A stretch of DNA of 64,000 bases, from the IMG/VR virus record IMGVR_UViG_3300044655_001643; one strand, 5' to 3'. Positions 282 to 19,408 of this stretch are shown in pieces. The stretch is from a virus. How positions within the stretch are numbered: position 1 is the first letter of the stretch; every line of letters starts with the position of its first letter. A program made the position numbers and the translations under genes. The notes under the pieces were generated by a model that was not told the DNA's origin, did no database searches, and saw only the letters and a list, made by a program, of their open reading frames with translations.

Positions 282-1478
282 TTAGAAAGGAATTTCTTCT
301 TTATCTACCGTGCTTGCAGCAGATTCGGAATCTTTAGCAATGGTAGTCTCATCAGCACCACCATCAACTTTGGTATACAAGTCAAGGAATGTTGCAGCAG
401 TATCAGCATCAAAACGATTCAAGCAGTATTTAATTGCTTTTGTTTTGTCACCGAAGATACCATACGTTTTGACAATGTGAACCAGACGGCGTGTTGAGAT
501 AACTTCATCACAGCCACCATCAGCAAACGTATTACGAATTACAGTAGCCCAAGTGACAAGTTTTTTGGCAAAGTCATCATCATTCTTACCAACAGAGGAC
601 AATTCTTTTTGGATGATTTTGTTTTCAACTTTCGTTGGTGGCCATTCTTGTTCCATTGTGTTAGGAAAACGTTCAAGAAACGCCTCATTCAACACGTTGG
701 TAAACATATAGCGACCATCTTCGGAACCCTTACCCTTAGTGTTAGCAGTAGCAAACACAGTAAAGCCAGGCGCTGGTGAAACCAGCTCATTCTTTTTCTT
801 TAGCAAGAATGGCTTACCCTCAAGTACCCGCTGTAAGCACGACAAGTTTTGTGCGCCGTAATCAATCTCATCAATACAGAGTACAGCACCCTGACGGGCT
901 GCAACAGTCACAGGACCGTCACGCCATTCCATCTGACCGTTGATCAAAACATAGTTACCAAGCAAATCAGATTCATCGGTATCTGGTGTCATTGATACGC
1001 AAACAAACTTACGTTTGGCTTTAGCACAGGCTTGTTCAATCGACATTGTTTTACCGTTACCAGAATGACCCGTAACGAAAACAGGGAAGAACATATTTGA
1101 TTGTACAATTGACAACACATCTTCAAAGTTGCCAAAAGGTACATAGTTAGCATATTGAGAAGGAATCAGATTCTCAGTCTCAAGATCAGTTGTCACATTG
1201 GCAATACGATTGCCAGATTGATTGGTAGGCTGAGCCAGTGGAATCACTTGTGCAGCCATGTTGATAGCAGCAGCCGCTGCCGGTGCCGCTCTGGATGCAG
1301 CAGGAACACGATACACACCACGCTTGACTTTGTTTGATTCATCATTGACGAACCATTGTGGGATAGGAATACTTAGCTTTTCAGCAATTGTTACAACATC
1401 AACTTTTGTAACTTCAGATTTGCCAGTTGCAATAAGAGCATCAATAAACAACTGACGTTTAGCGGCACGACTTGCCAT
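282..1478 (-). CDS. cobS: CobS/MoxR-like AAA+ ATPase
   Basis: Walker A GHSGNGKT, Walker B LCIDEID, ATANTKG and 'ISTRRL' motifs typical of T4-like phage CobS; adjacent to a vWA partner. Confidence 0.9.
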   Translation of the reverse strand: MASRAAKRQLFIDALIATGKSEVTKVDVVTIAEKLSIPIPQWFVNDESNKVKRGVYRVPAASRAAPAAAAAINMAAQVIPLAQPTNQSGNRIANVTTDLETENLIPSQYANYVPFGNFEDVLSIVQSNMFFPVFVTGHSGNGKTMSIEQACAKAKRKFVCVSMTPDTDESDLLGNYVLINGQMEWRDGPVTVAARQGAVLCIDEIDYGAQNLSCLQRVLEGKPFLLKKKNELVSPAPGFTVFATANTKGKGSEDGRYMFTNVLNEAFLERFPNTMEQEWPPTKVENKIIQKELSSVGKNDDDFAKKLVTWATVIRNTFADGGCDEVISTRRLVHIVKTYGIFGDKTKAIKYCLNRFDADTAATFLDLYTKVDGGADETTIAKDSESAASTVDKEEIPF

Positions 1479-1509
1479 AATATAAACTCCTCATCACAGT
1501 AGAAACTAC

Positions 1510-1538
1510 ATTATAAAGAGAATCCACCACTTTGTCAA
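1510..1538 (-). promoter_or_regulatory. Perfect consensus sigma70 promoter TTGACA-N17-TATAAT for cobS
   Basis: tgtcaa 1533-1538, attata 1510-1515, 17-nt spacer; GAGGAG SD before ATG at 1478. Confidence 0.85.
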
Positions 1539-1548
1539 GCGGTGGATT
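1521..1548 (-). terminator. Hairpin (probable terminator) after the vWA gene with the -35 at its apex
   Basis: Minus strand AATCCACCGCTT-GACA-AAGTGGTGGATT then CTCTTT. Confidence 0.55.
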
Positions 1549-1552
1549 GTTA

Positions 1553-3851: not shown

Positions 3852-3880
3852 ATAGTATCAGGGTTATGTATGTTTGTCAA
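3852..3880 (-). promoter_or_regulatory. Sigma70 promoter TTGACA-N17-TACTAT with extended -10 (TGn)
   Basis: tgtcaa 3875-3880 (overlapping the upstream stop codon) and atagta 3852-3857, upstream of the vWA gene. Confidence 0.7.
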
Positions 3881-4773
3881 GTCTTGAAATTTGTTACCAA
3901 TTTCATACCATATTCATCGTTACTTTTTGGCAACATGATGTCTTTTTTGTAACGAAGTTCATTCTTCTTGAATGGTGAATAGTCCACATAGTGGTGCCAG
4001 CGTTTATATCGCCAGACCATTCGTGCTACATCAGGGTGCATTCTTACCAGCATCTCAGATTTGTTTCTTGTACCTTCAGCATTCACACCATCAATCCAGA
4101 TATTCTTTTCTAGACCTTCTTTGTGGTAAAACTCTTCAGTGTTACCACCCTTGACAGTTTGTGTTGCTGCTTTACCTTGCAAGAATGCATTGAACTGAAT
4201 CGTGCAATCACCATCTTTCAAAACACGCAGACAAATATCAGTATCTTCATTGTAACGACCACGCCAACGATGTTTACAATTATTATCTATCAATAATGTG
4301 GAATAGATTCGTGTGTTCTTTACATAAGGTGGATAACTTTGATTTGGTGCAATAAAGAATCGATACTGAAAGCCAGAGATTGGAACATTCTCAAATCGAT
4401 CAACGAAATCTTCTGCGGCTTTGAAGATAACACCAGACTCTACACGAATACGATAGTTCTGATGAAGTCTATAGAAGTCAGAGATGTTATCGTCAAGTAC
4501 CCAATGCTTGTCGGCACCGATTGAGATAGAATGATCCCATGCAAAGTTTCTAGCACGACCAGGACCATCACCGTGATTACTGAATGGTGCAACAATCAGT
4601 GTTACATAGTCACGAATGTTGAACTTGTCTAGTGCTTTATCATATGCTTCTTCATCTTGTGGCTCAACCACAATGTAGTGTGGCACTCTCATTCTCGACA
4701 ATGATTTTGATGTAATCATTGTGTCTGAACGACCCTTAGAAACGATATAAACTGGATTCGTTGGATTTGTCAT
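3877..4773 (-). CDS. TAGT / GREB1-like (TET-associated) glycosyltransferase, probable DNA base glycosyltransferase
   Basis: PVYIVSKGR, YIVVEPQD, GPGRARN, WVLDDNI (DD motif), RGRYNEDTD, KGGNT: motif set of the phage TAGT/GREB1-type GT-A family. Confidence 0.75.
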   Translation of the reverse strand: MTNPTNPVYIVSKGRSDTMITSKSLSRMRVPHYIVVEPQDEEAYDKALDKFNIRDYVTLIVAPFSNHGDGPGRARNFAWDHSISIGADKHWVLDDNISDFYRLHQNYRIRVESGVIFKAAEDFVDRFENVPISGFQYRFFIAPNQSYPPYVKNTRIYSTLLIDNNCKHRWRGRYNEDTDICLRVLKDGDCTIQFNAFLQGKAATQTVKGGNTEEFYHKEGLEKNIWIDGVNAEGTRNKSEMLVRMHPDVARMVWRYKRWHHYVDYSPFKKNELRYKKDIMLPKSNDEYGMKLVTNFKT

Positions 4774-5536
4774 TTCTTTTCCATATCAAAGGTTTGTTAT
4801 TCCATATTCCACATTTGATGTTTTCATACTGTCTTTTTTTCAGATGTTGATTGAACATCTTACCAATCTTATCTTGATTCACAATCATACCAGCAACATC
4901 ATAATTTGTAAAGTGACCCATTCCCCAAGTGTTGAATGAGTTGGCAATAATCATGTGCTTCGGATTCAAGTTGCTAATGATATCATCGACATGTTCAATT
5001 GGATTATAAATGTGTTCAAAGTATTCTGAAGCAAATAGCATATCAACTGGCTCTCCAATCTCAGTGATAGAACCCACTAAATTGAAGTTCATTCTTTTTG
5101 CCATTATTTCACAATAATCCCACTGCTTTGTGCCTCTTAGATTTATAGCATAAACTTTTGCTTCAGGAAATATTTGCTTCAGTAAACACGTACTATAACT
5201 TATACCACAACCAATGTCAACAATAACTTTGGATTCTTTGAGTTCTTGGAAGTGAGGTGATTTGATAATTCGTTTGATGTAATCTCTGCTGTATGAAACA
5301 AAACAATTGAACACATCAATGAAGTAATAGTCATGATTGTACACATCATAAATGTTTCTGGTGTCTTTGTTCTCTAGATCATCATACCACTTATTTGATA
5401 ATTCCAAAAAAACTTTATCAGTCTTTCTGATTGCTTTACATTCTTCAGCATCTACTGGAAATAGTTTGCCGTAGTCTCGTAAGAAATATTCAAACAAGAC
5501 TTGTGGTTTTTCTTTGAGAAAATCTATCTGACTCAC
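4736..5536 (-). CDS. Class I SAM-dependent methyltransferase
   Basis: Motif I IVDIGCGISYST; 'DMLFASEYFEH' post-motif typical of small-molecule/sugar methyltransferases. Confidence 0.75.
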   Translation of the reverse strand: MSQIDFLKEKPQVLFEYFLRDYGKLFPVDAEECKAIRKTDKVFLELSNKWYDDLENKDTRNIYDVYNHDYYFIDVFNCFVSYSRDYIKRIIKSPHFQELKESKVIVDIGCGISYSTCLLKQIFPEAKVYAINLRGTKQWDYCEIMAKRMNFNLVGSITEIGEPVDMLFASEYFEHIYNPIEHVDDIISNLNPKHMIIANSFNTWGMGHFTNYDVAGMIVNQDKIGKMFNQHLKKRQYENIKCGIWNNKPLIWKRNDKSNESSLYRF

Positions 5537-5883
5537 TCTTCAATCCATCTCTTCAAAGAATTCTCATCCCTTTCTAGTTTTGGATACCAGATAGACTTTG
5601 TTTTCTCTGTAAGATTCTGATCAACTAATTTGGCAAATGCTTCATAATCTTCTTTGTTTCGAAAATGAAGATATAAGGTCTTGTATGTTTTCTTTTCATT
5701 TTGCTCAAACGCCGGCATACCTACCCAATGTTTTTGCCACTCAGCATTTTGAGTATCTACGCCATCATCTTCATCATCAGATTCACCAAAAAAACGATTG
5801 AGAGTTGGTGGTTGATATTCGTCAGTCAACAACTCCATACAGTTTTCATATGTGGTAGATTCTTTAGCATCAGAAGTTTTCAT
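5533..5883 (-). CDS. Conserved small phage protein (WxGMPxF type), probable partner of the TAGT glycosyltransferase
   Basis: WQKHWVGMPAFEQ ... LHFRNKEDYEAFAKLVDQNLTEKTKSIWYP; overlaps both neighbours in an operon. Confidence 0.6.
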   Translation of the reverse strand: MKTSDAKESTTYENCMELLTDEYQPPTLNRFFGESDDEDDGVDTQNAEWQKHWVGMPAFEQNEKKTYKTLYLHFRNKEDYEAFAKLVDQNLTEKTKSIWYPKLERDENSLKRWIEE

Positions 5884-6448
5884 TTTTCTTTCCTCTAATT
5901 ATTTTCTTTACCAATTTTGTTGCTTTCTGTCTTGCCATTTTCAAAGCAAGAGGCTTCACATGATCAGTATATCTGATTCCGTTCAAATGATCAAGCTCAT
6001 GTAGGAAACAACGTGCAGATAATCCGTGTAACTTTACCTGATTTACGTTACCATTTTCATCAGTAAATTCTACTTCAATCCATGATGGTCGATCAACATT
6101 CAAAAACAATGCTGGATAAGATAAGCATCCTTCTTTGTCTTTTACCACTGGGCCTTGATCAATTACTTTTGGATTGATACAGACTAGTTGAAACTCTTCT
6201 GTACCAATTACAAACATCCTCTCAGCAACGCCACATTGATTCGCAGAAAGACCAAGACCAGCGTACAACTTCATTGTCATCTTCAATCGTTTTGCTAATG
6301 TGACCATTGCGGGTGCTGGATATCCACCAGTATATTCTGGTATTCTTTGACCGAGCATAGAGAATTCTTCTCCGTAAACACGAAGAGGTTCAATTCTTTC
6401 TGATGTCTGTAAACCAGCAGTAGTATCAATTGTTAGAATTTCACTCAT
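5870..6448 (-). CDS. def: Peptide deformylase
   Basis: All three PDF motifs: GLGLSANQCG, EGCLS, HELDHLNG. Confidence 0.95.
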   Translation of the reverse strand: MSEILTIDTTAGLQTSERIEPLRVYGEEFSMLGQRIPEYTGGYPAPAMVTLAKRLKMTMKLYAGLGLSANQCGVAERMFVIGTEEFQLVCINPKVIDQGPVVKDKEGCLSYPALFLNVDRPSWIEVEFTDENGNVNQVKLHGLSARCFLHELDHLNGIRYTDHVKPLALKMARQKATKLVKKIIRGKKNENF

Positions 6449-8151
6449 TTTATCATCCTCGAAAAGTTCTTTACTTTCTCAAATCGAATTGTGTTTGCAA
6501 ATTTATCTTGTAGAATATCACCTTTGTGACTGATCACAAACAGATTTACTTCTTCAAGTGAATGCAGAATCTTCATCAACTCTTCTGTTCCATTATTATC
6601 TAGGCTTGAATCAAACACTTCATCAAGTATCAACAAATTGGTATTGATAGAGTTCTTCAGTTTTGCAACTGCTCTCCATGTGAGCATCAGTGCCATATCA
6701 ATTCTCTGCTTCTCACCCTCAGAGAAATTATGGTAACTAAAATCATCACGATGTCTGGACTTGATAGACTCTTTGAATGATTCATCAAGATTGAAGTTGA
6801 CAAAGAAATCCAGACTTGTCAAATACTTGTTTACCAATTTGTTGATCACAGGCAAATACTGTTTGACAATATTTGTTTTGATGCCAGTGTCTTTGAGTAG
6901 TGATGAAGCAGCATCATAATATGCCTTATCATCAATTAGTTGCTTGAGTTCTTTCTGTGCGTCTTTGATTTGTGTCTGAAGTGTCACAAGTTCGGTTTGA
7001 TCAACAATGTCATTATTTGTTTGTAGATTTTTGATTTCTTTTTCAAGACGAACAATGTTTTCGTTGTAGCCTTTTATCAATGTTTTTGTTGTGGCTAATT
7101 CAATACGAACGTTTGATTGTTCTTTTACATCATTACGAATAACATTCAGTAGAGATTCATGTGCAGATAATTTTACTTGTAATTCTTTAAGTGCCTCATT
7201 GAGTTCATGCTCTTTCGATGAGAGTTCAGTGCATAGTGTTTCTTTAAACTCCACGGTAATGGCTTGCCTACAAGTTGGACAATCAGCATTGTGTTCATAG
7301 AACTGTGTATCGTTTCGAACTTTGGATATCTTGCCTTCAATCTGAGACTCAACTTTCTTGTACGAAGCAATCTTGTTCTCAATCTCAGGCGCTTTTGCAA
7401 CAGTGTCATCCAAACTGGACAGTCGTTCGACCAGTATGTTAACCTCATCAGATAAGGTGCTAATGGTTTCTCTATTACTCTGTATCTCACCATCATACTC
7501 TTTTACCTTCTCTTCATTATTCTGATTGAGTTTGTCTAGATGTTCTTTCTTTAGATCATATCTTTGCTTGAGCAGTTCAATCTCATTCTTCTTTTGAACC
7601 ATTGAATCTTTGTTCAATGACAGTTTGCTTTTTACCAGACTGTTCATTACTGAGAAGATTTGAATGTCTAACAAATCTTCAATGATGGCACGGCGATCAG
7701 CAGCAGACAACTGCATGAACGGTGTAAAGGATGCTGAACCAAGAATGACGATCTGCGTAAAAGACTTATAGTTTAGTTTGAGAATAAACTTCTCTAAGTA
7801 GTCTTGATAGTCTCTAGCAGCCGCATCTTGATTCAGCAAAACCGAATCTTGATATATCTGAAAGATGTTGGGCTTGATGCCACGAACAATCTTGTACTCA
7901 CGGTTACCAATAGAGAATTCTACTTCAACAACACAATCTCTACCGTTTATACTATTTAGAAGATTGGGTTTGTTGATGTTACGAAATGGTTTACCAAACA
8001 AAGAGAAACATAAAGCATCAAGCATCGTTGATTTGCCTGCACCATTTGTGCCTACAATCAAAGTATTTGAAGTGCTGTTTAGTTGTATCTCAGAGAAATG
8101 GTTACCAGTTGAAAGAAGATTCTTCCATCTTAGTTTTTTGAAGTAAATCAT
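6445..8151 (-). CDS. gp46: Recombination endonuclease subunit (Rad50/SbcC-like)
   Basis: GTNGAGKS, CPTC zinc hook, FSEGEK signature, LILDEVFD; paired with gp47. Confidence 0.95.
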   Translation of the reverse strand: MIYFKKLRWKNLLSTGNHFSEIQLNSTSNTLIVGTNGAGKSTMLDALCFSLFGKPFRNINKPNLLNSINGRDCVVEVEFSIGNREYKIVRGIKPNIFQIYQDSVLLNQDAAARDYQDYLEKFILKLNYKSFTQIVILGSASFTPFMQLSAADRRAIIEDLLDIQIFSVMNSLVKSKLSLNKDSMVQKKNEIELLKQRYDLKKEHLDKLNQNNEEKVKEYDGEIQSNRETISTLSDEVNILVERLSSLDDTVAKAPEIENKIASYKKVESQIEGKISKVRNDTQFYEHNADCPTCRQAITVEFKETLCTELSSKEHELNEALKELQVKLSAHESLLNVIRNDVKEQSNVRIELATTKTLIKGYNENIVRLEKEIKNLQTNNDIVDQTELVTLQTQIKDAQKELKQLIDDKAYYDAASSLLKDTGIKTNIVKQYLPVINKLVNKYLTSLDFFVNFNLDESFKESIKSRHRDDFSYHNFSEGEKQRIDMALMLTWRAVAKLKNSINTNLLILDEVFDSSLDNNGTEELMKILHSLEEVNLFVISHKGDILQDKFANTIRFEKVKNFSRMIK

Positions 8152-9215
8152 TCAGGTTCAGTATTCAGTGCCTCAACATATAATTCACGCATCAATCCTT
8201 TCAACTTCTCACTTTCAACATTCAAGGAAAGATTGTCAATATACTTTGAAAGAATTGTCATTGTATCTTCTGCTTGATCAATCACATCATCATTTTCTGT
8301 GTCAAGTTCAGTCAAATCTTCGATCACAGAAATATCTGCCACTCCTGCTTTATACAAATTATCTATCACAACATCAAACAAAAAAGGATTCAGTTTGTTC
8401 TTCACTACAACTTTCACATAACAACCTTCGTACATTGAATAGTCGAATGTTCTATACTGTTCAGCAAAGTGTTCAAACTCATCATCATAATTGAGTTTAT
8501 AAAACATATGATAGGTGTTTTCAATAAACACCATCTCACGGGTATGTGTATCAAAAATATGAAAACCCCTGGGATCTTTGTAATCTGCCCATGTCATTTC
8601 ATTTGGTGAACCGACATAGAAGATATGTCCATCATCACTCTTATGATGAAAATGGCCAGACAATACTACATCATACTTGGACAATTCTTTTTTGTCAATA
8701 CCCTCGTGGGAAATATTGCCACGATCCATTTCGAAACCGGCAATCTCAAAATGGCCAACACATATCTGAGATTTGGTAGATTTTATTTGAGCAAAGATTT
8801 CATCTTGGTTATCGTCACATATCCAAGGTATAATGTCAATATCGATCCCATCAAAACTAACTGTACTGAAAGAATTATGTACAGTAATGTTATCATACTC
8901 TTTTAGAAGTAACTCTGAGGAGTTAACCTGAAGGGTGTTTTTGAATGATACATCATGGTTACCCAATAGTGTATGAAGCGTGAGATTGTTTTCTCTAAGT
9001 TTATCAAAGAAATACTTGCGACACAAATAGAGTGAATTGAAGTTGATAAACTTACGGCGGTCGAATAAATCGCCAAGTTGTATAATGGTTGATATACCAT
9101 TTTCTTTTAGGTAAGGGAAAAAGATGTTCTCGTAGAACTTCTCTATGTATTTATGAAATTCCAAAGAATCACCACGCATACCAAAATGCGTATCACCAAG
9201 TATACAGATTTTCAT
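8148..9215 (-). CDS. gp47: Recombination endonuclease subunit (Mre11/SbcD-like)
   Basis: GDTHFG, GDLFD, GNHD, SGHFH metallophosphoesterase motifs. Confidence 0.95.
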   Translation of the reverse strand: MKICILGDTHFGMRGDSLEFHKYIEKFYENIFFPYLKENGISTIIQLGDLFDRRKFINFNSLYLCRKYFFDKLRENNLTLHTLLGNHDVSFKNTLQVNSSELLLKEYDNITVHNSFSTVSFDGIDIDIIPWICDDNQDEIFAQIKSTKSQICVGHFEIAGFEMDRGNISHEGIDKKELSKYDVVLSGHFHHKSDDGHIFYVGSPNEMTWADYKDPRGFHIFDTHTREMVFIENTYHMFYKLNYDDEFEHFAEQYRTFDYSMYEGCYVKVVVKNKLNPFLFDVVIDNLYKAGVADISVIEDLTELDTENDDVIDQAEDTMTILSKYIDNLSLNVESEKLKGLMRELYVEALNTEPE

Positions 9216-9664
9216 TTTTCGATGTGTTTTTGAGCGACTCTAGTTCTGAGTTCAGTCGAACTAAATTTGTGACTTCTGGAATTGTAATAAGTTTTTATTC
9301 CTCTGTTGTCACAGATGTCTAAACCAGTCAAATGTTTGTCTTTATATTCTTCACCACAGATACGAATAGTGATAGGAAGAAACATCAACAAATCTTCCAA
9401 ATCTTTTTCTGTTTCATAGACTACAATCTCATCGACAAATTTGACAGCGGAGAGTTGTACATATCTCTCAACTACAGATTGAACTGGTTTGTTTTTGGTG
9501 TCTGGTCTATCAATTGTTGGATCAGTTTGTAAACCAACGATCAAGTAGTCGCAAATTTGTTTACATTCGGCAAGCATCAAAATGTGACCAGCATGGAGTA
9601 AGTCGAAAGTTGAGCAGGTAAAACCAACAGGTTTTCCAATCATGTTATCAGGTAGTGTCAGCAT
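9212..9664 (-). CDS. Cytidylyltransferase-family nucleotidyltransferase (TagD/RfaE-II-like)
   Basis: TFDLLHAGH (HxGH), LIVGLQTD, FSSTELR. Confidence 0.88.
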   Translation of the reverse strand: MLTLPDNMIGKPVGFTCSTFDLLHAGHILMLAECKQICDYLIVGLQTDPTIDRPDTKNKPVQSVVERYVQLSAVKFVDEIVVYETEKDLEDLLMFLPITIRICGEEYKDKHLTGLDICDNRGIKTYYNSRSHKFSSTELRTRVAQKHIEK

Positions 9665-9668
9665 AGTG

Positions 9669-10205
9669 TTATTCTACATCATCCTCTAAGAATTGTTCAA
9701 GACCTTCTGACTTCTTTGCCTTCTTTTTCTTCTTATTTTCCTCGAAGTTGTGGATAAACTCGGAGATATTATCGTACAGTTCGAACTGTCTCATGTTACC
9801 ATCAATATCTTCATACATTTCACCTTCATCTAGTAATCCAAATTGTTGTGTTGCTTTGTACTTCACATACAGTTGCTTCTTTTCCCGCATAATTCTACGT
9901 AGAAATGCATAGTAAATTATCTGTGTAAAGTAAGCAAATGGATTCTTAGATTTGTCTGGATCAAAGTTACGGAAGTATTGAATACAGTTTTCTACACCAT
10001 CAGATATCATCTCATCACGGTAAGTATATGAAATGAAGTTAGGCTTGCGTGATAGATGTTCCGCAATCTTCAAAAAACATTCACCAATGTAATCTGGTAT
10101 CTTTGGCTCTGATGTGTTATTTTCTTTTGCTGCTTTACAATCATCACGATACTTGATAAGTGCTGTCAAAAAGTCGGCGTTGTTTACGTAGTGTTTAGTT
10201 GCCAT
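9669..10205 (-). CDS. gp55: Late transcription sigma factor
   Basis: HYVNNADF, YIGECFLKIA, NF.SYTYRDEMISDG, NPFAYFTQI. Confidence 0.95.
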   Translation of the reverse strand: MATKHYVNNADFLTALIKYRDDCKAAKENNTSEPKIPDYIGECFLKIAEHLSRKPNFISYTYRDEMISDGVENCIQYFRNFDPDKSKNPFAYFTQIIYYAFLRRIMREKKQLYVKYKATQQFGLLDEGEMYEDIDGNMRQFELYDNISEFIHNFEENKKKKKAKKSEGLEQFLEDDVE

Positions 10206-11146
10206 TATACATTACCGTAAATATTATTTTTGAGATATGTATAACCCTTGATAAGTTCTTCAACACCATCATCTAATGTGTGATATGGCACCCAACCAGT
10301 TGCTTCTAACTTTTCGTTTGACACAATGTAGTTACGCTGATCTGGATCTTTCTTGATGTCGCCTTCTACAATCGTAAAGTTTGGCAGTTGTCTCTTGATG
10401 ATTTCACACAATTCTAACTTGGAGACATTTGCAGATGAAAGACCAACATTGTAAATTTGTCCTTTCATTTCATCAAACTGATAAATTGCATGTAGAAATG
10501 CTTCACATACATCACGAACATGAATGTAGTTGCGTTTGAAGTGTCCTTCAAAGATAACAACATAGCCATCATTGACAGCACGATAAGTCAAATCATTTAC
10601 TAGCAAATCAGTACGCATACGTGGTGACATGCCAAACACTGTAGCAAGACGATAACTAATTGAGTTCTCACGTTCCATCAATACTTTTTCAACAGCAACT
10701 TTATCCACAGCATACTTTGAAATAGGGCGCAGTGGTGAATCTTCAGTGCAGAAATTGTTTTCATCACCTGTGCCATAAGCTGAATTGGTAGTAGGCATGA
10801 TGATACGCTGTTCTTTTGATGTAGCATTGAGCATCCAGAATACAGCATCTTTATTTGTTGTATCTGCACCAACAACATCTTTATTACAGAGTGGCGCACC
10901 AACCAAAGCAGCAAGAGGAATGATAATGTCTGCTTGTTTGAGGAGAGGTGTAACATGCGCTGGATTACGAATATCTCCATTTACAATTGTTAGATTTTTA
11001 TTATCGCAAAGATGATTCAGACCTGACTGACGAAACATAAAGTTATCTAATACCGTAACTTGAAAGTTCATCTGAAGTAGATACTCTACTAGAATACAAC
11101 CAATGTAACCAGCACCACCAGTTACTAATACTTTTTGCCGATCCAT
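10205..11146 (-). CDS. NAD-dependent sugar epimerase/dehydratase (extended SDR)
   Basis: VLVTGGAGYIG, YxxxK (YAVDK), RLATVFG, RNYIHVRD. Confidence 0.9.
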   Translation of the reverse strand: MDRQKVLVTGGAGYIGCILVEYLLQMNFQVTVLDNFMFRQSGLNHLCDNKNLTIVNGDIRNPAHVTPLLKQADIIIPLAALVGAPLCNKDVVGADTTNKDAVFWMLNATSKEQRIIMPTTNSAYGTGDENNFCTEDSPLRPISKYAVDKVAVEKVLMERENSISYRLATVFGMSPRMRTDLLVNDLTYRAVNDGYVVIFEGHFKRNYIHVRDVCEAFLHAIYQFDEMKGQIYNVGLSSANVSKLELCEIIKRQLPNFTIVEGDIKKDPDQRNYIVSNEKLEATGWVPYHTLDDGVEELIKGYTYLKNNIYGNV

Positions 11147-11147
11147 A

Positions 11148-12329
11148 TTATACCCTATTCAAAATGTTTACGATTTCGTCAATTTGTGATTCTTTAAGTG
11201 TTGGATAATTTCCAATATAGAAACTATAAAAGTGCATATGATCCGTGTTTGGAAAGTTACGATAGTGATCTTTTGGTACAATATTTTCCAAATATGGTTG
11301 ACGTAATTGATTACCACCACCAGCAGAGCCTCTTCTGAACTCAACCTCTTCATCACGCATTTTATTCATCAAACGATTTACAAAATATTCTGTGCAATAT
11401 TCAGGCTGTAAAACAATGTTGAACGCATAGTTGCTACAACCAACAAGTTTGAAATCTACTTTGTATTTCTTTTGATCTAGTTTAGATAAAAAGTGAAATA
11501 GATTTTTATTTCTTAGATCAACATTTTTATCCAGATACTTCAACTGATTCTGACCAAGAATGCCACCAATTTCATTGTTACGCATATTGTATGCTGGATA
11601 TGCAAAGATGAAATCTGGATTCAGTGTTGGATATTTCTTTTTATAATCATCAGACATCTTTTCTGAACCACACTCACGAATCATACCATGTGAACGAAGC
11701 ATACGAACTGTGTGATAAACTTCTTCATCGTTTGTACAAACCATACCACCTTCAATTGTAGACATATGATGAGCAAAGTAGAATGAGAAGTTTGACATCC
11801 AACCATAACTACCTAACAATCTACCATTATGCATAGCGCCATGTGATTCGCAAACATCTTCAATCAAAGGAATGTTACGATGACGAAGAACTTCCAACAC
11901 TCTGTCAGATAAACAATCAAAGCCTTGTGCATAGGTAATAAACACAGCACGTGTTTTATCTGTGATAGCATTCAGTATGCCACCTTCATTCATACCAAGA
12001 GTGTCTAAGTCGATGTCAACAAACACTGGCGTAAATCCACATTGAATGATTGATGCGATATCAGATACCCATGTAAATGGTGGTACAATCACTTCACCAC
12101 CTTCTGGATGTTTGATCTTCAACATTGTCATTGACAATAGATTTGCCGAAGCACCAGAGTTGACAAAGACTGAATACTTTACGCCCAACCATTTAGACCA
12201 TGCTTCTTCAAAAGCACGACACTCTGGTCCATTTGTAAGTTTTGGATTATCTTTTTTGAGATGTTCTATTACCAAATCTAAATCTTCTCTAGTAATATTG
12301 TCAGACATTAGCGGATACTTCATCATCAC
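11148..12329 (-). CDS. DegT/DnrJ/EryC1-fold PLP enzyme, ColD/E1-type NDP-4-keto-6-deoxysugar 3-dehydratase
   Basis: VNSGASAN, IEDVCESHGA, SFYFAHHMSTIEGG, with His at the usual Schiff-base Lys position. Confidence 0.8.
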   Translation of the reverse strand: MMMKYPLMSDNITREDLDLVIEHLKKDNPKLTNGPECRAFEEAWSKWLGVKYSVFVNSGASANLLSMTMLKIKHPEGGEVIVPPFTWVSDIASIIQCGFTPVFVDIDLDTLGMNEGGILNAITDKTRAVFITYAQGFDCLSDRVLEVLRHRNIPLIEDVCESHGAMHNGRLLGSYGWMSNFSFYFAHHMSTIEGGMVCTNDEEVYHTVRMLRSHGMIRECGSEKMSDDYKKKYPTLNPDFIFAYPAYNMRNNEIGGILGQNQLKYLDKNVDLRNKNLFHFLSKLDQKKYKVDFKLVGCSNYAFNIVLQPEYCTEYFVNRLMNKMRDEEVEFRRGSAGGGNQLRQPYLENIVPKDHYRNFPNTDHMHFYSFYIGNYPTLKESQIDEIVNILNRV

Positions 12330-13309
12330 TCCATAATTATTTTACTACCAGTGTAATCAAATTTGAACGGCACCCATATATTGATTTCGGGTATTGCTTG
12401 TCTTATTATATCATGTTTTTCTGGAGATGCAAGAAACATAAAGAAACCACCACCACCTGCACCCATAAGTTTACCGCCATAAGCACCAGCACTCACTGCT
12501 TTATCATATATGTTATCTATATACCTTGTTGTAACATCATCCGTCAATTTTCTTTTGTAATTCCATTGCATATCAAGTAAAGCTCCAATATCTTTCATTG
12601 GTGCTTCCTGCATAAACAATGCCAAAGCATCATCGGAAATTTTAGATATTGTCTTTAGATATTCCTTTGACTTGCCCGTTTTGATATTATCGACTTGTTG
12701 TTTAGCATGAACATCTGCTAATCGATCTATACCAGAAAAGCCTAACATAATATGACTTTCTAAAACATCCAAATAACTTGTAGACACTTTTAGTGGTGAG
12801 ACTTTGATATTGCCACCAGAAAGTTCAATCACATTTACTCCACCATGTGCAGCAGAGATTTGATCTTGAACGCCAACAGATTCGCCTATGTAATTCTGTT
12901 CAATGTTTATCGCATCGATTGCCAATTCATAAGGCGAATATGTTCGTCGCTGATATCGTGCAATAGCATGTATCAGTCCAACAGTAAATGCAGAAGATGA
13001 TCCAATGCCCGAACGAGCAGGTAAATCACCATCATGACTAATAGAAATTCCGTTAGATATATCATAATACTTCAGACACTCCCTTACAGATGGATGGTCT
13101 ATTTCTGAGATATCATTGACGCTTTCTATCTTTGAATAGATAATCCGGTTAGCGTGTTCAAAATACGGCGGCAACTTCTTCAAACTTATATAGCAATAAT
13201 GTGCCATGGCAGCAGTGATTACTTTAGTTGAATGGCTGTTGAACCAATCAGGGTAATCTGTGCCACCTCCAAACAATGACAGACGATATGGTGTCTTAGA
13301 AATTATCAT
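12326..13309 (-). CDS. hddA: GHMP kinase, D-glycero-D-manno-heptose-7-phosphate kinase (HddA-like)
   Basis: KTPYRLSLFGGGTD, PARSGIGSSSA, GVQDQ, GGKLMGAGGGGF. Confidence 0.8.
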   Translation of the reverse strand: MIISKTPYRLSLFGGGTDYPDWFNSHSTKVITAAMAHYCYISLKKLPPYFEHANRIIYSKIESVNDISEIDHPSVRECLKYYDISNGISISHDGDLPARSGIGSSSAFTVGLIHAIARYQRRTYSPYELAIDAINIEQNYIGESVGVQDQISAAHGGVNVIELSGGNIKVSPLKVSTSYLDVLESHIMLGFSGIDRLADVHAKQQVDNIKTGKSKEYLKTISKISDDALALFMQEAPMKDIGALLDMQWNYKRKLTDDVTTRYIDNIYDKAVSAGAYGGKLMGAGGGGFFMFLASPEKHDIIRQAIPEINIWVPFKFDYTGSKIIME

Positions 13310-14213
13310 TCAGAGTTTTCAGAATATTGTCTTTGTTCAAACCTAATTTATTCAATAGGTATTCTCTTCCACCATTTTCAAAGACATACATTTCAGGAAT
13401 AGTAATTTGTTTTACTTTCTTGAGTATGTCACTATCTGACATTGCTTCCATGACTGCCGCACCAAGAGAGCCTGATGGTGTTTGCTCATCGATAACAATA
13501 ACACCCGCACTCACATCGATTGCATTCAGCAAAGTTTTAGGAAATGGCTTTGACTGAATTAGATCAACACCGAAAATTCTATTTGGCTGTTCATCATATG
13601 CTTGCTTGACAATGTGAGCCATTTTACCAGAACCAATTACAACAACTTTGTCTTGATTTACTATATCACCCATTGCACGATACTGCAAATCAGTTTTGAA
13701 GTTGGTCACATCAAGTTCTGGTTGTTCATGTCTATCAAGTCTTACATAACAAAACTCTGGCTTATCTAAAAGTTTTTTTGCCAATCGTCTTGATGTTTCC
13801 GAATCGGCTGTAGTGTAAATGTTCACGTTCATAATTGAACGCAGACACGCAAAATCTTCTGTGATGTAATGAGTGGGACCAGCATCAGCATAACCAATGC
13901 CAATACCGACAGACATAATACAGATTGGTAAATCCATCATACTAGGACCGCATTTGATTTGCTCAATCGCACGAAGAGAGATAAATGGTGCCATTGCATA
14001 ACAGAATACTTTCTTTCCTTCAAGTGCAAGACCCGTGGCAATGTCAATCATTGCTTGTTCAGAGATGCCGCAGTGAATAAAGTTTTCTGGATACTTCTCA
14101 CGAAGTTCATCAAGTGCAGCAGCACCAAAATCAGCAGACAAAAAGTAAATGTCTTTGTCTGTTTTCAGTCTTTCGTTTATCTCTTCAATAAAAGCATCAC
14201 GCTGTAGCATCAT
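13296..14213 (-). CDS. Transketolase, C-terminal (pyrimidine-binding) subunit
   Basis: LSADFG, CGISEQAM, GLALEG, RAIEQIK, GPTH, YVRL. Confidence 0.9.
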   Translation of the reverse strand: MMLQRDAFIEEINERLKTDKDIYFLSADFGAAALDELREKYPENFIHCGISEQAMIDIATGLALEGKKVFCYAMAPFISLRAIEQIKCGPSMMDLPICIMSVGIGIGYADAGPTHYITEDFACLRSIMNVNIYTTADSETSRRLAKKLLDKPEFCYVRLDRHEQPELDVTNFKTDLQYRAMGDIVNQDKVVVIGSGKMAHIVKQAYDEQPNRIFGVDLIQSKPFPKTLLNAIDVSAGVIVIDEQTPSGSLGAAVMEAMSDSDILKKVKQITIPEMYVFENGGREYLLNKLGLNKDNILKTLNDNF

Positions 14214-14967
14214 TTATCTCCTTGCGGCATTGTTCAATCTGTTCTGGTGTAATTGGTTGCATGTAGTGCCATTCTGGTTTGTTCTCCATCAAACTGAAAC
14301 CTTTACCCTTGACTGTGTTTGCAATAATAATTTTTGGTTTTGTTGATGAAGCATCCAGTGCTGCTTCGATAGCGTTTGTATCATGTCCATCAATAGAAAA
14401 AATATCAAATTCAAAACCAGATAACTTTTGATGAATTGAATTGAGTTTCAAACAATCATCTGTCTGACCAAGAATAATCAGATTATTGACATCAATAAAG
14501 ATTGTCATGTTTGGTATCTGACGATGTGCAACAAACAACAATGCTTCCCATGTTGAGCCTTCGTATAGTTCGCCCTCCGAGATAATCACATAAACATGTT
14601 TGTTTGGATCAGCAAGTGCCATACCAGCACCGACTCCAACACCATGGCCAAGAGAACCAGATGTCATATCAATACCTGGAATTGATACATTACCAAACAC
14701 ACGCAGACATGTATCTTTGTTCTTACCCCAATTCTCCCAATCTTCTTTTGGTAGAATATGCAAGTCTTTTAGAATAGGATACAATGCAACTGTTGCATGA
14801 CCTTTACTAATCAAAACTTTATCTTCTAGACCTACATAACCAGCATGATAAAGTGTAGTGACAATCTCTAACATTGAGAATGTAGAACCAGGATGACCTT
14901 GTTTTACTTCTACAAATTTCTCAAATAATTCTTTGCGATATAAGTTTGCTTTACGTTGCAAATCCAT
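14197..14967 (-). CDS. Transketolase, N-terminal (TPP-binding) subunit
   Basis: GHPGSTFS, ISKGHA, SGSLGHG, SEGELYEGSTWEA, DGHD, TVKGKG; likely start ATG at 14967. Confidence 0.9.
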   Translation of the reverse strand: MDLQRKANLYRKELFEKFVEVKQGHPGSTFSMLEIVTTLYHAGYVGLEDKVLISKGHATVALYPILKDLHILPKEDWENWGKNKDTCLRVFGNVSIPGIDMTSGSLGHGVGVGAGMALADPNKHVYVIISEGELYEGSTWEALLFVAHRQIPNMTIFIDVNNLIILGQTDDCLKLNSIHQKLSGFEFDIFSIDGHDTNAIEAALDASSTKPKIIIANTVKGKGFSLMENKPEWHYMQPITPEQIEQCRKEINDATA

Positions 14968-14969
14968 AA

Positions 14970-16490
14970 TCAATCTCCAAGTATTTTTCGTTTCAGTTTT
15001 ATTTTCGACATCTCTTCAAGATTTTGGCGTGAATCTGCACCAAACTTTGTTTCTACAAGATTCAGGAATGGCTCATGTGAAAAGTATTTGTGCCATGCTT
15101 CATCACGGAACTTCAACACTTCTGCACCAGTCAATGTTTTTGTACGCAGAGGTTTGCAGTCATATGATAAGAACGCAAACTCTTCAAATCTTTCTGGCAA
15201 ATCCCATCCGTTATTCTTGGCGTACATGTACAATGGACTACCAGGCAATGCCATTGCAGCATAGAAGTTTGCATGTTCGGTGTTCAATTCAAGTGACAAA
15301 TCAAGTGTCTCTTGCATTGTCTCCATCGTATCTTCGGGGAAACCAAACATGTAATTACCAAGAATGTTGATGTCTGCTGCCTTGACATCAGCAACAACAC
15401 GACGAATATCTACATCTTCAAACTTGCCCTTCTCAATTTCAAGGCGTACATTTTGGTTTGCTGCTTCGATGCCAAGACACAACCAATTCACACCTGCTTC
15501 TTTGAATAGTTCAAGTTGATCTTTGCGGACAGAATCAACACGTGCATATGCCCAGAAGTTGAAATCCATACCACGTTGTTTGATGCCTTCTAGAATTGGT
15601 ATATAATATTTTTTATTCAGAAAGAACATCTCATCTGTTAGACGAACAGTACGAACACCATTCTCATACAGATATTCAAACTCTTTGAGCATTAGTTCTG
15701 GTGACCAGAAACGCATACCACGTGAATCGGATGATACTGTGCCTTGTTCATATGATGTACGATTCACAATGTTGATCATACAGAAATTACATCCAAATGA
15801 ACAACCTAGTGATGTAGAGATAGCAGCAAACGGTGTGCGATTCTCATCATCTTTGAAATAGTTGTGCCAGTAGTGGGCACGATATTTGTCTAACAGTTTT
15901 TTATCTTTTGGCAACAAGTCCCATGCGTAGCCTGGCATTACATTGTCCATATCTTTCGTTTGAACAATTTGACCAGGCGCACCAGTTGCAGCAAAGCCGT
16001 GTTTTTTGTATACCAAACCACGAACTTTTTCTAAATCATCAACATAGTTTGTTTGTAGCAAATCTAACAAACCATACACACCTTCATTGATGAAAACAAA
16101 ATCAACATAAGGTAAACCAATTACATCATATGGCAATGCAGATGCATGTGAGCCAACGAATACAGTCTTGATGTTTGGATGTGATTGTTTGAGTTGTGTT
16201 GCTAACTTTGATGCACCAATCATCATCGTGGTGCCTGAATTTGGATTTTGTCCATAAAGAACAAAGACTGCTATATCAGTTTTTGTCTTAGCAATTCTTT
16301 CTGCTGCTTCTTCAACGTCTGTTGGCTCAGCATCGAAATCTAAAATGCAAGGATCGTGGCCTGCAACACGAACGGCGTTAGCAAGAAGCAATGCCCATGT
16401 TGGAGGTTCAATAGCAGAATACTTATTCGCCAGTGCCTGATATGCTTGAGCAGCACTGCTCGGTATTACAAATGTCACCACTTTTGACAT
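14970..16490 (-). CDS. Cobalamin-binding radical SAM enzyme
   Basis: N-terminal B12-binding Rossmann domain (VFVGSHASALP, FINEG), CSFGCNFC [4Fe-4S] motif, GIEAAN, YMFGFPEDT, PGSPLY. Confidence 0.88.
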   Translation of the reverse strand: MSKVVTFVIPSSAAQAYQALANKYSAIEPPTWALLLANAVRVAGHDPCILDFDAEPTDVEEAAERIAKTKTDIAVFVLYGQNPNSGTTMMIGASKLATQLKQSHPNIKTVFVGSHASALPYDVIGLPYVDFVFINEGVYGLLDLLQTNYVDDLEKVRGLVYKKHGFAATGAPGQIVQTKDMDNVMPGYAWDLLPKDKKLLDKYRAHYWHNYFKDDENRTPFAAISTSLGCSFGCNFCMINIVNRTSYEQGTVSSDSRGMRFWSPELMLKEFEYLYENGVRTVRLTDEMFFLNKKYYIPILEGIKQRGMDFNFWAYARVDSVRKDQLELFKEAGVNWLCLGIEAANQNVRLEIEKGKFEDVDIRRVVADVKAADINILGNYMFGFPEDTMETMQETLDLSLELNTEHANFYAAMALPGSPLYMYAKNNGWDLPERFEEFAFLSYDCKPLRTKTLTGAEVLKFRDEAWHKYFSHEPFLNLVETKFGADSRQNLEEMSKIKLKRKILGD

Positions 16491-19400: not shown

Positions 19401-19408
19401 TATTTATA
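19401..19408 (-). promoter_or_regulatory. T4-type late promoter TATAAATA upstream of gp3
   Basis: Plus-strand tatttata; gp55 is encoded in the window. Confidence 0.75.

Follow-up and report, generated by a model that had tools for sequence, protein, structure and literature searches.

Gene layout at the locus

The window, that is, the whole 64,000-nucleotide stretch analyzed, comes from a T4-like phage found in lake water. The capsid proteins closest to those of this phage are from cyanophages (about 64%), and a megablast search with 25 kb against cultured phages gave no match. Three genes on the minus strand, referred to here as the trio, encode a small protein (Ndom), a methyltransferase (MT), and a glycosyltransferase (TAGT). 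These genes and their surroundings are as follows.

3877..4773, minus strand: TAGT gene, 298 aa, GT-A glycosyltransferase
4736..5536, minus strand: MT gene, 266 aa, GTG start, class I SAM methyltransferase
5533..5883, minus strand: Ndom gene, 116 aa, acidic N-terminal half, HWVGMPAF at residues 52 to 59
5870..10205, minus strand: context genes, namely, def (peptide deformylase), gp46, gp47, a nucleotidyltransferase gene, and gp55
9212..9664, minus strand: the small nucleotidyltransferase gene, RfaE-domain-II/TagD-like, between gp55 and gp47
10205..16490, minus strand: sugar cassette with an SDR, a DegT/RfbH-like enzyme, an HddA-like kinase, a split transketolase, and a B12 radical SAM protein

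The context genes run on the same strand into Ndom-MT-TAGT, and neighboring genes overlap or abut. The overlap is 14 nt between def and Ndom, 4 nt (GTGA) between Ndom and MT, and 38 nt between MT and TAGT. When the ORFs of the window were searched by blastp, the T4 homologs found upstream of the trio were gp55 (E = 1e-23), gp47 (E = 1e-60), and gp46 (E = 2e-101), and def matched PF01327 (E = 7e-35). The ORFs, overlaps, and T4 homologs were all as described in the first-pass annotation, which had placed three overlapping minus-strand genes at the end of a gp55-47-46-def operon. The trio arrangement was kept in 14 close IMG/VR relatives; therefore, it is not an artifact or the remains of a broken gene. 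Synteny of gp55-47-46-def with the trio was also found in lineages 0, 4 to 7, and 9. Sigma-70-like sites numbered 71, compared with 68.6 in shuffled sequence, i.e., there was no excess. The sole TATAAATA upstream of the trio on the same strand lay at position 19401.

Properties of the three proteins

TAGT matched PF20691 over profile positions 2 to 205 of 205 (E = 4.6e-44; 151.2 bits, with a cutoff of 27.5) and phrog_842 (E = 1e-46). Its catalytic set consists of R75, D94-D95-N96, and E176-D177. After alignment with the T6 beta-alpha-GT, PhiJL001 gp22, and P12024L gp27, residues R75, D94, D95, D177, and G209 were found to be invariant. The motif R..DD(D/N)..ED defines the JGT-like GT-A enzymes for which DNA glycosylation has been proven experimentally (bioRxiv 10.1101/2023.12.21.572611), and the T6-type beta-alpha-GT belongs to TAGT (PMC13390438). 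The full-length profile match, together with the catalytic R..DD(N)..ED residues, confirmed the initial assignment of the glycosyltransferase to the TAGT family. TAGT is basic (pI 9.0), with a clade-specific C-terminal extension that is also basic (pI 9.6). We compared it with its copy in G006, a complete syntenic relative carrying the same trio (149.6 kb, terminal repeats, CheckV 100%). At 80% identity, TAGT was the most conserved protein that the two phages have in common, the capsid protein being 60% identical; such a level is expected if the substrates of the enzyme are invariant. No transmembrane segment was predicted in TAGT, MT, or Ndom, and all three proteins are predicted to be soluble.

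Ndom has a conserved core at about residues 45 to 116, with the pattern W-x-G-M-P-x-F ... K-T-K-S-I-W-Y-P. Within this core, T95 is nearly invariant and lies in the exposed basic KTKS segment. A search at E ≤ 1e-3 yielded 2,224 representative homologs, the gene contexts sampled being those near MT. The N-terminal domain of the fused TAGT proteins in phages Aeh1, 65, PTm1, Kuja, and GD1 is Ndom, and, besides TAGT, its fusion partners include ParB_N, LAGLIDADG, and Zn ribbon domains. A ParB_N-Ndom fusion beside TAGT and MT was found by an HMM search in lineage L101, and a word search for longer fusions of this domain gave two proteins only. The small WxGMPxF protein noted at first is thus present, and its description can be refined, since it corresponds to the usual N-terminal domain of its TAGT clade. 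Ndom appears to be an obligate partner of that clade, either fused to TAGT or encoded alongside it. Its AF2 model (pLDDT 81) had no fold match by Foldseek against the PDB or VIA-wide. Similarity to the UPF3 domain (RRM-like) was marginal only (E = 0.03 in Pfam and 0.18 against the PDB), and viral hypothetical proteins were the only matches in the ESM Atlas.

MT has an N-terminal helical cap and the invariant motifs D-x-G-C-G, EYFEH, and G-H. An alignment of 37 homologs contained 23 invariant columns, among them D107, G109, and G111 of motif I (VDIGCGISYS). Matches to Methyltransf_31, Methyltransf_23, and Methyltransf_11 were below the gathering scores (best E value, 1.1e-5; 25.6 bits for Methyltransf_31, with a cutoff of 27). 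In NCBIfam, only a trans-aconitate methyltransferase was matched (25.6 versus a cutoff of 297), and there was no PHROG match. The AF2 model (pLDDT 92.4) showed a Rossmann-like fold of alternating beta strands and alpha helices. Its nearest folds were small-molecule O/S/N/C-methyltransferases (Z of about 13.5); the top matches were all class I (Foldseek, VIA), and no DNA methyltransferase was among the fold matches listed. No PPY/PPF or PC motif IV was present in the sequence, nor was there a Pfam match to PF00145, PF01555, or the Dam types. The sequence bears out the first-pass annotation that MT lacks the motif IV of DNA methyltransferases. By motif and modeled fold, MT is not a DNA-base methyltransferase and resembles small-molecule O-methyltransferases; it is probably an O-methyltransferase acting on the transferred sugar. 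We found no cultured phage with MT, since a tblastn search against cultured phages gave no match. The methyltransferase neighboring the P12024L enzyme was considered as a counterpart and rejected, as it is unrelated to the MT of the window.

The trio recurs in permuted orders next to replication genes

Among 26 MT lineages in IMG/VR, TAGT adjoins MT in about 20, and so does Ndom in about 20. The three genes occur in at least five orders; they always share a strand, and in most cases they overlap. Of 11 MAG contigs in an independent data set, 5 also had all three genes. Because the genes co-occur in about 20 of the 26 MT lineages despite the permuted orders, we consider the trio to be functionally linked. 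The earlier description of an embedded methyltransferase holds for the window; it is not general, being one of the at least five gene orders.

The contexts of the trio nearly always consist of replication genes. Examples are gp46/47/UvsW/dCMP deaminase, DNA polymerase B followed by TAGT-Ndom-MT and a primase-like gene, an N6_N4 DNA methyltransferase gene followed by Ndom-MT-TAGT, and a ParB_N-Ndom fusion followed by TAGT-MT-SDR. In henriette, the order is clamp loader-TAGT-dUTPase-DNA polymerase. Partnerships between ParB homologs and DNA hypermodification enzymes are known (PMC13229309).

In a sister lineage, an MT homolog with 52% identity occupies the same genomic site, with TAGT and Ndom replaced. 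Its neighbors are MazG, DUF1599/NMAD1, a gp42 ortholog (58% identical to T4 gp42), and a C5-MTase-like gene. The presence of this homolog in a gp42 cluster connects the MT family with the hypermodification of DNA. A 365-aa protein of the gp42 lineage had no Pfam or PDB match.

Sugar genes near the trio

The sugar cassette was found in every close relative whose sequence reaches that far. G006 has no homolog of any member of the cassette, yet its TAGT is retained at 80% identity. The cassette as a requirement for TAGT was therefore rejected, and it is possibly a lineage-specific donor supply. SDR genes adjoin the trio in lineages L101/L107, L076, and L094. The SDR gene of the window is 5.4 kb from the trio, and its product is 27% identical to the best trio-side SDR; at this identity, the trio-side SDRs were rejected as its orthologs. 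Three other MT lineages have a homolog of the small nucleotidyltransferase (54 to 59% identity) close to the trio; in L093, the homolog is directly upstream of MT. The gene is absent from G006 and several close relatives, and its product is a possible, unproven accessory of the trio. The window genome also has several further glycan cassettes and glycosyltransferases.

Search for acceptor-making genes

A phmmer search of the window with seven queries gave no ThyA-family or TET match at E ≤ 10, and PF00303 and PF12851 were absent. By blastp against T4, gp55, gp47, and gp46 were found, with no homolog of gp42, gp56, alpha-gt, or beta-gt. The absence of TET/JBP and hydroxymethylase genes from the window, already noted in the first-pass annotation, was thus upheld by phmmer, by the two profiles, and by comparison with T4.

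That annotation had supposed that a hydroxymethylated pyrimidine acceptor is made by a gene elsewhere in the genome. We found neither a ThyA-family hydroxymethylase (PF00303) nor a TET/JBP enzyme (PF12851) in the complete genome of G006, in G023 (a 37-kb carrier, 88% complete), or in another 18 fragments carrying TAGT. The PF12851 profile recovered the positive control, P12024L, at 2.8e-29. These results argue against the supposition; a genome with no gene for a hydroxymethylated base had been named beforehand as evidence against hypermodification, and this is what was found in the nearest complete genome, G006, not the window's own genome. Going by the gene content of G006, neither a ThyA-type hydroxymethylase nor a TET/JBP oxygenase supplies the acceptor in that genome. 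No C5-MT or 5mYOX gene was found. As for 2OG oxygenases, G006 has one P4H-like gene, far from the trio, and G023 has none, so there was no consistent candidate.

Phages Aeh1 and 65 are listed among the T4 relatives without genes 42 and 56; in relatives that lack these genes and the glucosyltransferase genes, a major dCMP modification was considered to be absent, because enzymes that fail on T4 DNA cut some such genomes (PMC2993671).

Comparison with known systems

The T2/T6 beta-glucosyl-HMC-alpha-glucosyltransferase and metavirome glycosyltransferases share the PF20691 family and the active-site residues with the TAGT of the window (Burke et al. 2021; bioRxiv 2023.12.21.572611). Like the GT-A DNA glycosyltransferases of other phages, it is phage encoded, lies in a replication module, and is sometimes paired with an NDP-sugar epimerase. 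In subclass II of the systems with a partner epimerase, the GT-A gene is beside an NAD-dependent epimerase/dehydratase gene, together with C5-MT and 5mYOX genes (bioRxiv 2023.12.21.572611). Unlike the TET/ThyA-associated GT-A systems, the window and its complete relative have no 5mYOX/TET or ThyA-type hydroxymethylase gene, and unlike the T6, PhiJL001, and P12024L enzymes, the clade of the window has Ndom plus the basic C-terminal extension. The dedicated SAM methyltransferase in the module of the window is not reported in Burke et al. 2021 or bioRxiv 2023.12.21.572611.

The closest cultured counterparts are the Aeh1ORF087c-type fusions of Aeromonas phages Aeh1, 65, phiAS5, and Ah1, Tenacibaculum phage PTm1, Vibrio phages Kuja and henriette 12B8, Pectobacterium phage POP12, and Paraglaciecola phage GD1. 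The proteins of the window are 45 to 52% identical to them in the TAGT part and 32 to 41% in Ndom. In these phages, Ndom-TAGT is a single polypeptide of 399 to 471 aa and there is no MT, whereas the window has separate genes with MT between them. They have no TET gene and mostly a single, thymidylate-synthase-like ThyA gene only. The Aeh1ORF087c-type protein has been listed as a glucosyl transferase that is presumed to modify DNA, with the base not known (PMC8056088).

T4 carries alpha-gt between genes 55 and 47, and TAGT likewise lies in the gp55-gp47-gp46 neighborhood, although the T4 alpha- and beta-GTs belong to families other than TAGT, with a GT-B fold in the case of beta-GT. A T4-like trait is seen in the sister lineage, where a gp42 ortholog and MT occupy the trio site. 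We know of no sugar methylation in T4. In the RB69/DLP3-type (arabinosyl-5-hydroxycytosine) and RL38JI-type systems, the DNA glycosyltransferases are embedded in phage NDP-sugar gene clusters. In the T4-like phage of the window, similarly, genes for a sugar kinase, an epimerase, and an NTP-transferase share a strand with that of a DNA-type glycosyltransferase. However, the RB69/DLP3 and RL38JI types require a 5-hydroxy-dCMP synthase of the ThyA superfamily together with GT-B-like transferases, and the cassette of the window is split from the glycosyltransferase gene by gp55-47-46-def and is absent from a relative that keeps the glycosyltransferase. Outside phages, GREB1 has a GT domain related to TAGT with the key residues conserved (PMC7968844). 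It is a large cytoplasmic animal protein that O-GlcNAcylates ER-alpha, and it has no Ndom, MT partner, or phage context.

Proposed function and alternatives

The best reading, to which we give somewhat less than an even chance, is that the trio glycosylates DNA and O-methylates the sugar. What Ndom does, the order of the steps, the O-methylation, and the DNA target are our inferences. The trio would form one soluble cytoplasmic module by which phage DNA receives a methyl-capped sugar. TAGT would act as a JGT-like GT-A enzyme with an NDP-sugar as the donor, most likely a common host UDP-sugar, because TAGT is 80% identical in a relative without the sugar genes of the window. Ndom may dock TAGT on DNA or the replication machinery, or it may complete the acceptor site. 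MT would methylate a sugar hydroxyl, or the NDP-sugar ahead of transfer, and the methyl cap could hide the adduct from nucleases that target glycosylated DNA or could block chain extension. The basic TAGT with its basic tail, the absence of transmembrane segments, and the replication contexts count for a DNA target; the absence of an acceptor-making gene, the published view on the T4 relatives (PMC2993671), and the protein target of GREB1 count against it.

The main rival, which we regard as unlikely, is that Ndom-TAGT O-glycosylates a phage or host protein in the manner of GREB1 and that MT methylates the sugar; Ndom itself could be the acceptor, through the invariant Thr of the KTKS segment. 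The GT domain of GREB1 aligns with JGT and phage TAGT, and its target is a protein (PMC7968844). Base-modification neighbors are missing from about 65% of phage GT-A/GT-B contigs, an acceptor-making gene was not found in complete relatives, and the near invariance of T95 in an exposed basic segment, as well as the other glycan cassettes and glycosyltransferases of the window genome, would fit this explanation. However, the module spans unrelated virion types and hosts (T4-like phages, a 37-kb phage, Ackermannviridae, and a Bacteroidota phage), so that any common protein target must be universal. Its neighbors are replication genes and not structural ones, ParB_N and LAGLIDADG domains are among the fusion partners of Ndom, and an MT homolog lies within a gp42 hydroxymethylcytosine cluster. 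These fusions of Ndom, suggestive of DNA, also bear on the idea of a target that is neither DNA nor protein, such as a nucleotide, a metabolite, or RNA (a tRNA base or a defense signaling nucleotide), or of a supply of methylated NDP-sugar. Although MT is closest in fold to small-molecule methyltransferases, all three proteins are predicted to be soluble, dCMP deaminase and dUTPase genes are neighbors, NDP-sugar enzymes occur in some lineages, and Ndom marginally matches the RRM-like UPF3 domain, the characterized close family members all act on polymers, either DNA or protein, and no transporter, kinase, or metabolite-handling gene is consistently linked. We consider such a target quite improbable.

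About equally improbable, in our estimate, is that TAGT acts on 5hmC or 5hmU in DNA, made by a hydroxymethylase or TET enzyme in an unseen part of the genome. The window and its close relatives cover about half of a genome of about 180 kb, a TET-TAGT arrangement occurs in P12024L, in PhiJL001 a gene resembling that of a dUMP hydroxymethylase lies close to TAGT, one additional ThyA-family member in PTm1 carries a pyrimidine hydroxymethylase annotation, and the MT family is also found with gp42. Against this, G006, G023, and the 18 other TAGT-bearing records have neither family, dTMP in G006 is made via ThyX, and gp42 and TAGT/Ndom are mutually exclusive among the MT lineages. The gp42-type enzymes score 74 to 78 bits with PF00303, whereas the only full-length ThyA genes of Aeh1, 65, henriette, GD1, Kuja, and POP12 score 182 to 408 bits and are thymidylate-synthase-like. 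The published list of Aeh1 and 65 as phages without gene 42 (PMC2993671) points in the same direction. DNA glycosylation with sugar O-methylation remains our preferred reading. That the Ndom-TAGT clade would be a self-sufficient DNA glycosyltransferase, acting on an acceptor without prior hydroxymethylation (a canonical base or another), with MT O-methylating the sugar, has in our view a low probability.

Significance

Glycosylation of phage DNA is a main escape from restriction and CRISPR, and the enzymes serve in the mapping of modified bases. To our knowledge, the characterized TAGT/JGT-like enzymes all need a hydroxymethyl or hydroxy pyrimidine provided by a ThyA homolog or a TET/JBP oxygenase. 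In published mining, about two-thirds of phage glycosyltransferase contigs are unexplained because they have no base-modification partner. Our finding defines a large coherent subset of these orphan glycosyltransferases, a TAGT clade invariably accompanied by a small partner domain. It also places a dedicated methyltransferase beside TAGT in hundreds of uncultured phages, and the subset contains complete genomes without a known acceptor-making gene. Since cultured phages Aeh1, 65, PTm1, Kuja, and POP12 carry the fused Ndom-TAGT, the question is directly testable.

With a protein as the target, the module would amount to a phage equivalent of GREB1 with a wide distribution. With DNA as the target, it would imply a new acceptor chemistry or a new acceptor-making route, as well as the first case of a DNA-linked sugar being capped enzymatically with a methyl group. 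If, in addition, the Ndom-TAGT clade is self-sufficient, it would explain part of the roughly 65% of phage glycosyltransferase contigs without a partner, and a methyl-glycosylated DNA base of an undescribed kind would occur widely among phages of freshwater and marine habitats.

Three overlapping genes downstream of def in a T4-like phage

Three overlapping minus-strand ORFs fill positions 3877-5883 of the window. Upstream lie a peptide deformylase gene (def; PF01327 match, 7e-35) and gp46, gp47, and gp55 (T4 homologs at 2e-101, 1e-60, and 1e-23, respectively), and CobT/CobS-like genes follow downstream. The ORFs, overlaps, and neighbors described in the first-pass annotation, three overlapping genes after gp55-47-46-def, were thus all recovered.

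Features of the locus
5533..5883, minus strand: Ndom, small WxGMPxF protein, 116 aa; HWVGMPAF is residues 52-59
4736..5536, minus strand: MT, class I SAM methyltransferase, 266 aa; GTG start within the GTGA overlap with the Ndom stop
3877..4773, minus strand: TAGT, glycosyltransferase, 298 aa; 38-nt overlap with the MT gene
282-3823, minus strand: CobS-like AAA_5/CbbQ_C ATPase and CobT-like protein (756 aa, long acidic linker)

In its capsid protein the window shares about 64% identity with T4-like cyanophages, and no close cultured phage was found at the DNA level. The stretch was found in public sequencing runs from many studies, these being metagenomes of lake water and fresh water. The CobS/CobT pair is syntenic in all T4-like relatives and is served by a separate sigma-70-like promoter (3880-3852), with hairpin terminators at 1548-1521 and 267-242. 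A phrog_1574 glycosyltransferase (GT)-like gene directly follows CobS in relatives (L012 15979-16794) and in G006 (44297-45133), an IMG/VR genome with the same synteny and trio (149,598 bp, with direct repeats at its termini and rated 100% complete by CheckV); the window copy, 34-38% identical, is located in the tail-fiber region instead (41688-42431, minus strand).

TAGT is a full-length, highly conserved glycosyltransferase

The claim of a TAGT-type glycosyltransferase held in a profile search: the 298-aa protein is a full-length match to PF20691 (4.6e-44; 151 bits against a cutoff of 27.5) with catalytic residues intact, and it also matches phrog_842. When it was aligned with the T6 beta-glucosyl-HMC-alpha-glucosyltransferase, PhiJL001 gp22, and P12024L gp27, residues R75, D94, D95, D177, and G209 were invariant. 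These residues make up the R..DDD..ED motif set of JGT-like GT-A enzymes proven to glycosylate 5hmC in DNA (bioRxiv 10.1101/2023.12.21.572611; PMC8256090). The T6-type glucosyltransferase itself belongs to TAGT (PMC13390438). The window protein is basic (pI 9.0), has no transmembrane segment, and carries a basic C-terminal extension specific to its clade.

TAGT was the most conserved gene among 14 close relatives (90-97% identity, versus 72-79% for gp46). It also ranked top among the proteins shared with G006 (39741-40670; 80% identity), compared with 60% for the capsid, 59% for the portal, 54% for gp46, and 52% each for MT and Ndom. Such conservation points to either unusually strong constraint or a recent sweep.

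MT and Ndom

Pfam methyltransferase matches to MT were weak. Its motif I is VDIGCG, and its EYFEH and GH motifs were invariant in 37 homologs. The AF2 model was confident (pLDDT 92.4), and the nearest solved folds were small-molecule O/S/N/C-methyltransferases with a helical cap, namely, COMT-type enzymes, SibL, MmcR, DsyB, and PigF (Foldseek E of ~1e-6; VIA Z of ~13.5, with a flat list). No DNA methyltransferase was among the fold matches listed by either program, and the sequence has no PC or (D/N/S)PP(Y/F/W) motif. The absence of motif IV and the small-molecule-type folds support the first-pass view of a tailoring methyltransferase not acting on DNA bases. The family comprises 267 stretches in IMG/VR and only 11 contigs of metagenome-assembled genomes (MAGs) among 185,579 species genomes, with no homolog in cultured phages; it is essentially viral.

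According to tblastn, the Ndom core (about residues 45-116) corresponds to the N-terminal domain of TAGT proteins in Aeromonas phages Aeh1, phiAS5, and Ah1 and Tenacibaculum phage PTm1; a family HMM added Vibrio phage Kuja and Paraglaciecola phage GD1. In all six, Ndom and the GT are fused in one ORF of 399-471 aa. An exhaustive HMMER search gave 2224 Ndom cluster representatives (E<=1e-3), mostly stand-alone proteins of 85-130 aa, some being two tandem copies. Among 51 longer homologs, 5 carried TAGT, 5 carried ParB_N, and single ones were fused to LAGLIDADG, a zinc ribbon, or DUF3102 plus an RXYLT1-like GT part. In the last (P0001, metagenomic, 612 aa), an RXYLT1_C-like GT part and DUF3102 precede a C-terminal Ndom 51% identical to that of the window; Ndom is therefore also joined to another GT type. 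Duplication is frequent, as in two-tandem-Ndom proteins and TAGTs with two N-terminal Ndoms (P0002; P0099, P0113), and in Aeh1 a second small Ndom-like ORF, Aeh1ORF086c (L001 6888-7103), directly follows the fused TAGT. The AF2 model of Ndom (pLDDT 81) is nearly devoid of regular secondary structure; neither Foldseek nor VIA-wide found a fold match, and UPF3/RRM-like signals were marginal. Ndom may act as a docking or acceptor-site subunit.

The trio remains linked although its order is permuted

The order gp55-gp47-gp46-def-Ndom-MT-TAGT-CobT-CobS was kept in 14 close relatives. The MT profile fetched 66 viral loci at greater distance, with MT at 34-54% identity, and these were clustered into 25 further lineages. 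In 19 lineages, TAGT lay within a few kilobases of MT, was encoded on the same strand, and mostly overlapped; in one more, a contig end cuts TAGT. Ndom was near MT in 16 lineages by BLAST and in four more by HMM. The orders found were Ndom-MT-TAGT, TAGT-Ndom-MT, Ndom-TAGT-MT, MT...TAGT-Ndom, nucleotidyltransferase-MT-Ndom-TAGT, and [ParB_N-Ndom fusion]-TAGT-MT-SDR. The description of MT as embedded is thus true of the window and represents one arrangement among several. The same linkage of MT with TAGT/Ndom was found again in 5 of the 11 MAG contigs. Persistence of the linkage through permuted gene orders is strong evidence that the three proteins would function jointly. Ndom-MT-TAGT was also present, with a strong ThyA (4.4e-94), in L085, a 675,678-bp IMG/VR record classed as a provirus.

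Gene neighborhoods point to DNA

The genes found around members of the module point to DNA. Neighbors include gp46/47, UvsW, and dCMP deaminase. In L076 they are a family-B DNA polymerase and a primase-like gene, beside which lie UDP-glucose dehydrogenase and SDR genes; in L094, an N6_N4 DNA methylase along with UvsX-, helicase-, and primase-like genes; in henriette 12B8, genes for a clamp loader, a dUTPase, and a DNA polymerase; and in 1.124.O, DNA adenine methylase and dUTPase genes. DNA hypermodification clusters are known to include ParB homologs, which activate phage thymine dioxygenases (PMC13229309). In T4, alpha-gt sits between genes 55 and 47.

Most informative is a sister T4-like lineage (L042, L043, L047-L052), where an MT 50-54% identical occupies the same site after def, without TAGT or Ndom. 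After this MT come a MazG-type pyrophosphohydrolase, DUF1599 ("nucleotide modification associated domain 1"), a gp42 ortholog (58% identical to T4 gp42), a 365-aa protein, and a C5-methylase-like gene. On the 46-kb IMG/VR contig L043, the region after def-MT (6778-12752) encodes DenV-like, MazG, DUF1599, gp42, 365-aa (phrog_14998), C5-methylase-like, and phrog_1574 proteins; it forms a compact putative hydroxymethylcytosine cluster, with the 365-aa protein as a candidate for a novel enzyme of DNA modification. In L054, two ORFs resembling 2OG-Fe(II) oxygenases by eye flank gp46, and an HNH/resolvase-like gene is inserted directly after TAGT (1864-2481, 4684-5217, 7724-8335); such oxygenase-like ORFs were absent from the window and G006.

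Known acceptor-making genes were not found

Genes for making the acceptor were sought in the window, G006, 22 further records, and cultured carriers. As the first-pass annotation had stated, the 64-kb window contained neither a ThyA-family hydroxymethylase gene nor a TET/JBP gene. Its proposal that a hydroxymethyl-pyrimidine is made elsewhere in the genome found no support in complete G006 or the 18 TAGT-bearing records, which lacked the known maker genes. G006 had no PF00303 or PF12851 match, and phmmer found no match there to T4/T6 gp42, the L043 enzyme, PhiJL001 gp24, Kuja ThyA, PTm1 gp167, or P12024L TET. The PF12851 test works, since P12024L TET, the positive control, was recovered at 2.8e-29. 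The dTMP route of G006 is ThyX, and its one P4H-like 2OG oxygenase is distant from the trio. Among the 22 further records, PF12851 matched none and PF00303 matched only two gp42-lineage contigs, with 0 of the 18 TAGT-bearing records, including G023 (37 kb, 88% complete).

No TET was found in cultured Ndom-TAGT carriers. Their ThyA-family genes scored 182-408 bits, thymidylate-synthase-like, versus 74-78 bits for gp42-type enzymes, although score alone cannot separate dUMP hydroxymethylase from thymidylate synthase. PTm1, alone among them, has an extra hydroxymethylase-like gene. Petrov et al. (PMC2993671) report that phages Aeh1 and 65 lack genes 42 and 56; in a later survey, Aeh1ORF087c is entered as a glucosyl transferase that "presumably modifies DNA," the base being unknown (PMC8056088). 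Taken together, the profile and phmmer negatives, the ThyA scores, and the lack of gene 42 indicate that complete genomes of the Ndom-TAGT clade have none of the known routes to a glycosyl acceptor.

The sugar cassette of the window is dispensable for the trio

Two features upstream of the trio bear on the donor.

9212-9664, minus strand: RfaE-II-like nucleotidyltransferase, between gp55 and gp47
10205-16490, minus strand: sugar cassette (B12 radical SAM, split transketolase, HddA-like GHMP kinase, RfbH/DegT-like enzyme, SDR)

The cassette plus GT resembles the situation in RB69/DLP3, where DNA arabinosyltransferases are located in NDP-sugar clusters. G006 has no homolog of any cassette gene or of the nucleotidyltransferase and yet keeps TAGT at 80% identity, above capsid and portal, so the trio does not need the cassette. 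The simplest donor would be a common host UDP-sugar. In other lineages the trio does have NDP-sugar enzymes as neighbors (UDP-Glc dehydrogenase plus SDR, or SDR alone), which resembles "GT plus epimerase" pathways, where GT activity requires the epimerase (bioRxiv 10.1101/2023.12.21.572611). The window SDR was ruled out as an ortholog of the trio-adjacent SDRs (27% identity).

Three other lineages had copies of the nucleotidyltransferase at 54-59% identity, one of them immediately before MT, and the gene was missing from G006 and several close relatives. Between the window and the close relatives that carry it, the gene shares only 56% identity, compared with 76-92% for the flanking genes. It behaves as a mobile gene open to exchange. 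In close relatives (L016 1550-2676), a smaller two-gene ThDP enzyme (199 plus 176 aa, E1 alpha/beta-like by eye) replaces the split transketolase in place; therefore, the ThDP-dependent step is conserved and the enzyme exchanged.

Interpretation

We tentatively favor, as the most likely reading, that TAGT with Ndom would glycosylate DNA and MT would add an O-methyl cap; the acceptor would come from none of the known routes. Glycosylation of protein, as in GREB1 (PMC7968844), would draw on the same enzyme family; set beside the replication genes around the trio, it seems unlikely. A small-molecule or RNA target, with which the MT fold and the marginal RRM-like signals of Ndom could be reconciled, is quite improbable given the ParB_N and LAGLIDADG fusions of Ndom. 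That an unseen gene makes a hydroxymethyl acceptor is about as improbable in view of the searches of G006 and the 18 TAGT-bearing records. The earlier interpretation is upheld in part: the locus is a TAGT module with a tailoring methyltransferase not of the DNA-base type, and the hydroxymethyl-pyrimidine premise finds no support, no known maker gene having been found in the complete relative.

In published mining, about 65% of phage GT contigs had no 5mYOX or ThyS neighbor. Ndom-MT-TAGT, defined here, is a coherent three-part subset of these partnerless contigs, and the missing 5mYOX/ThyS partner is shown here to hold for complete genomes too.
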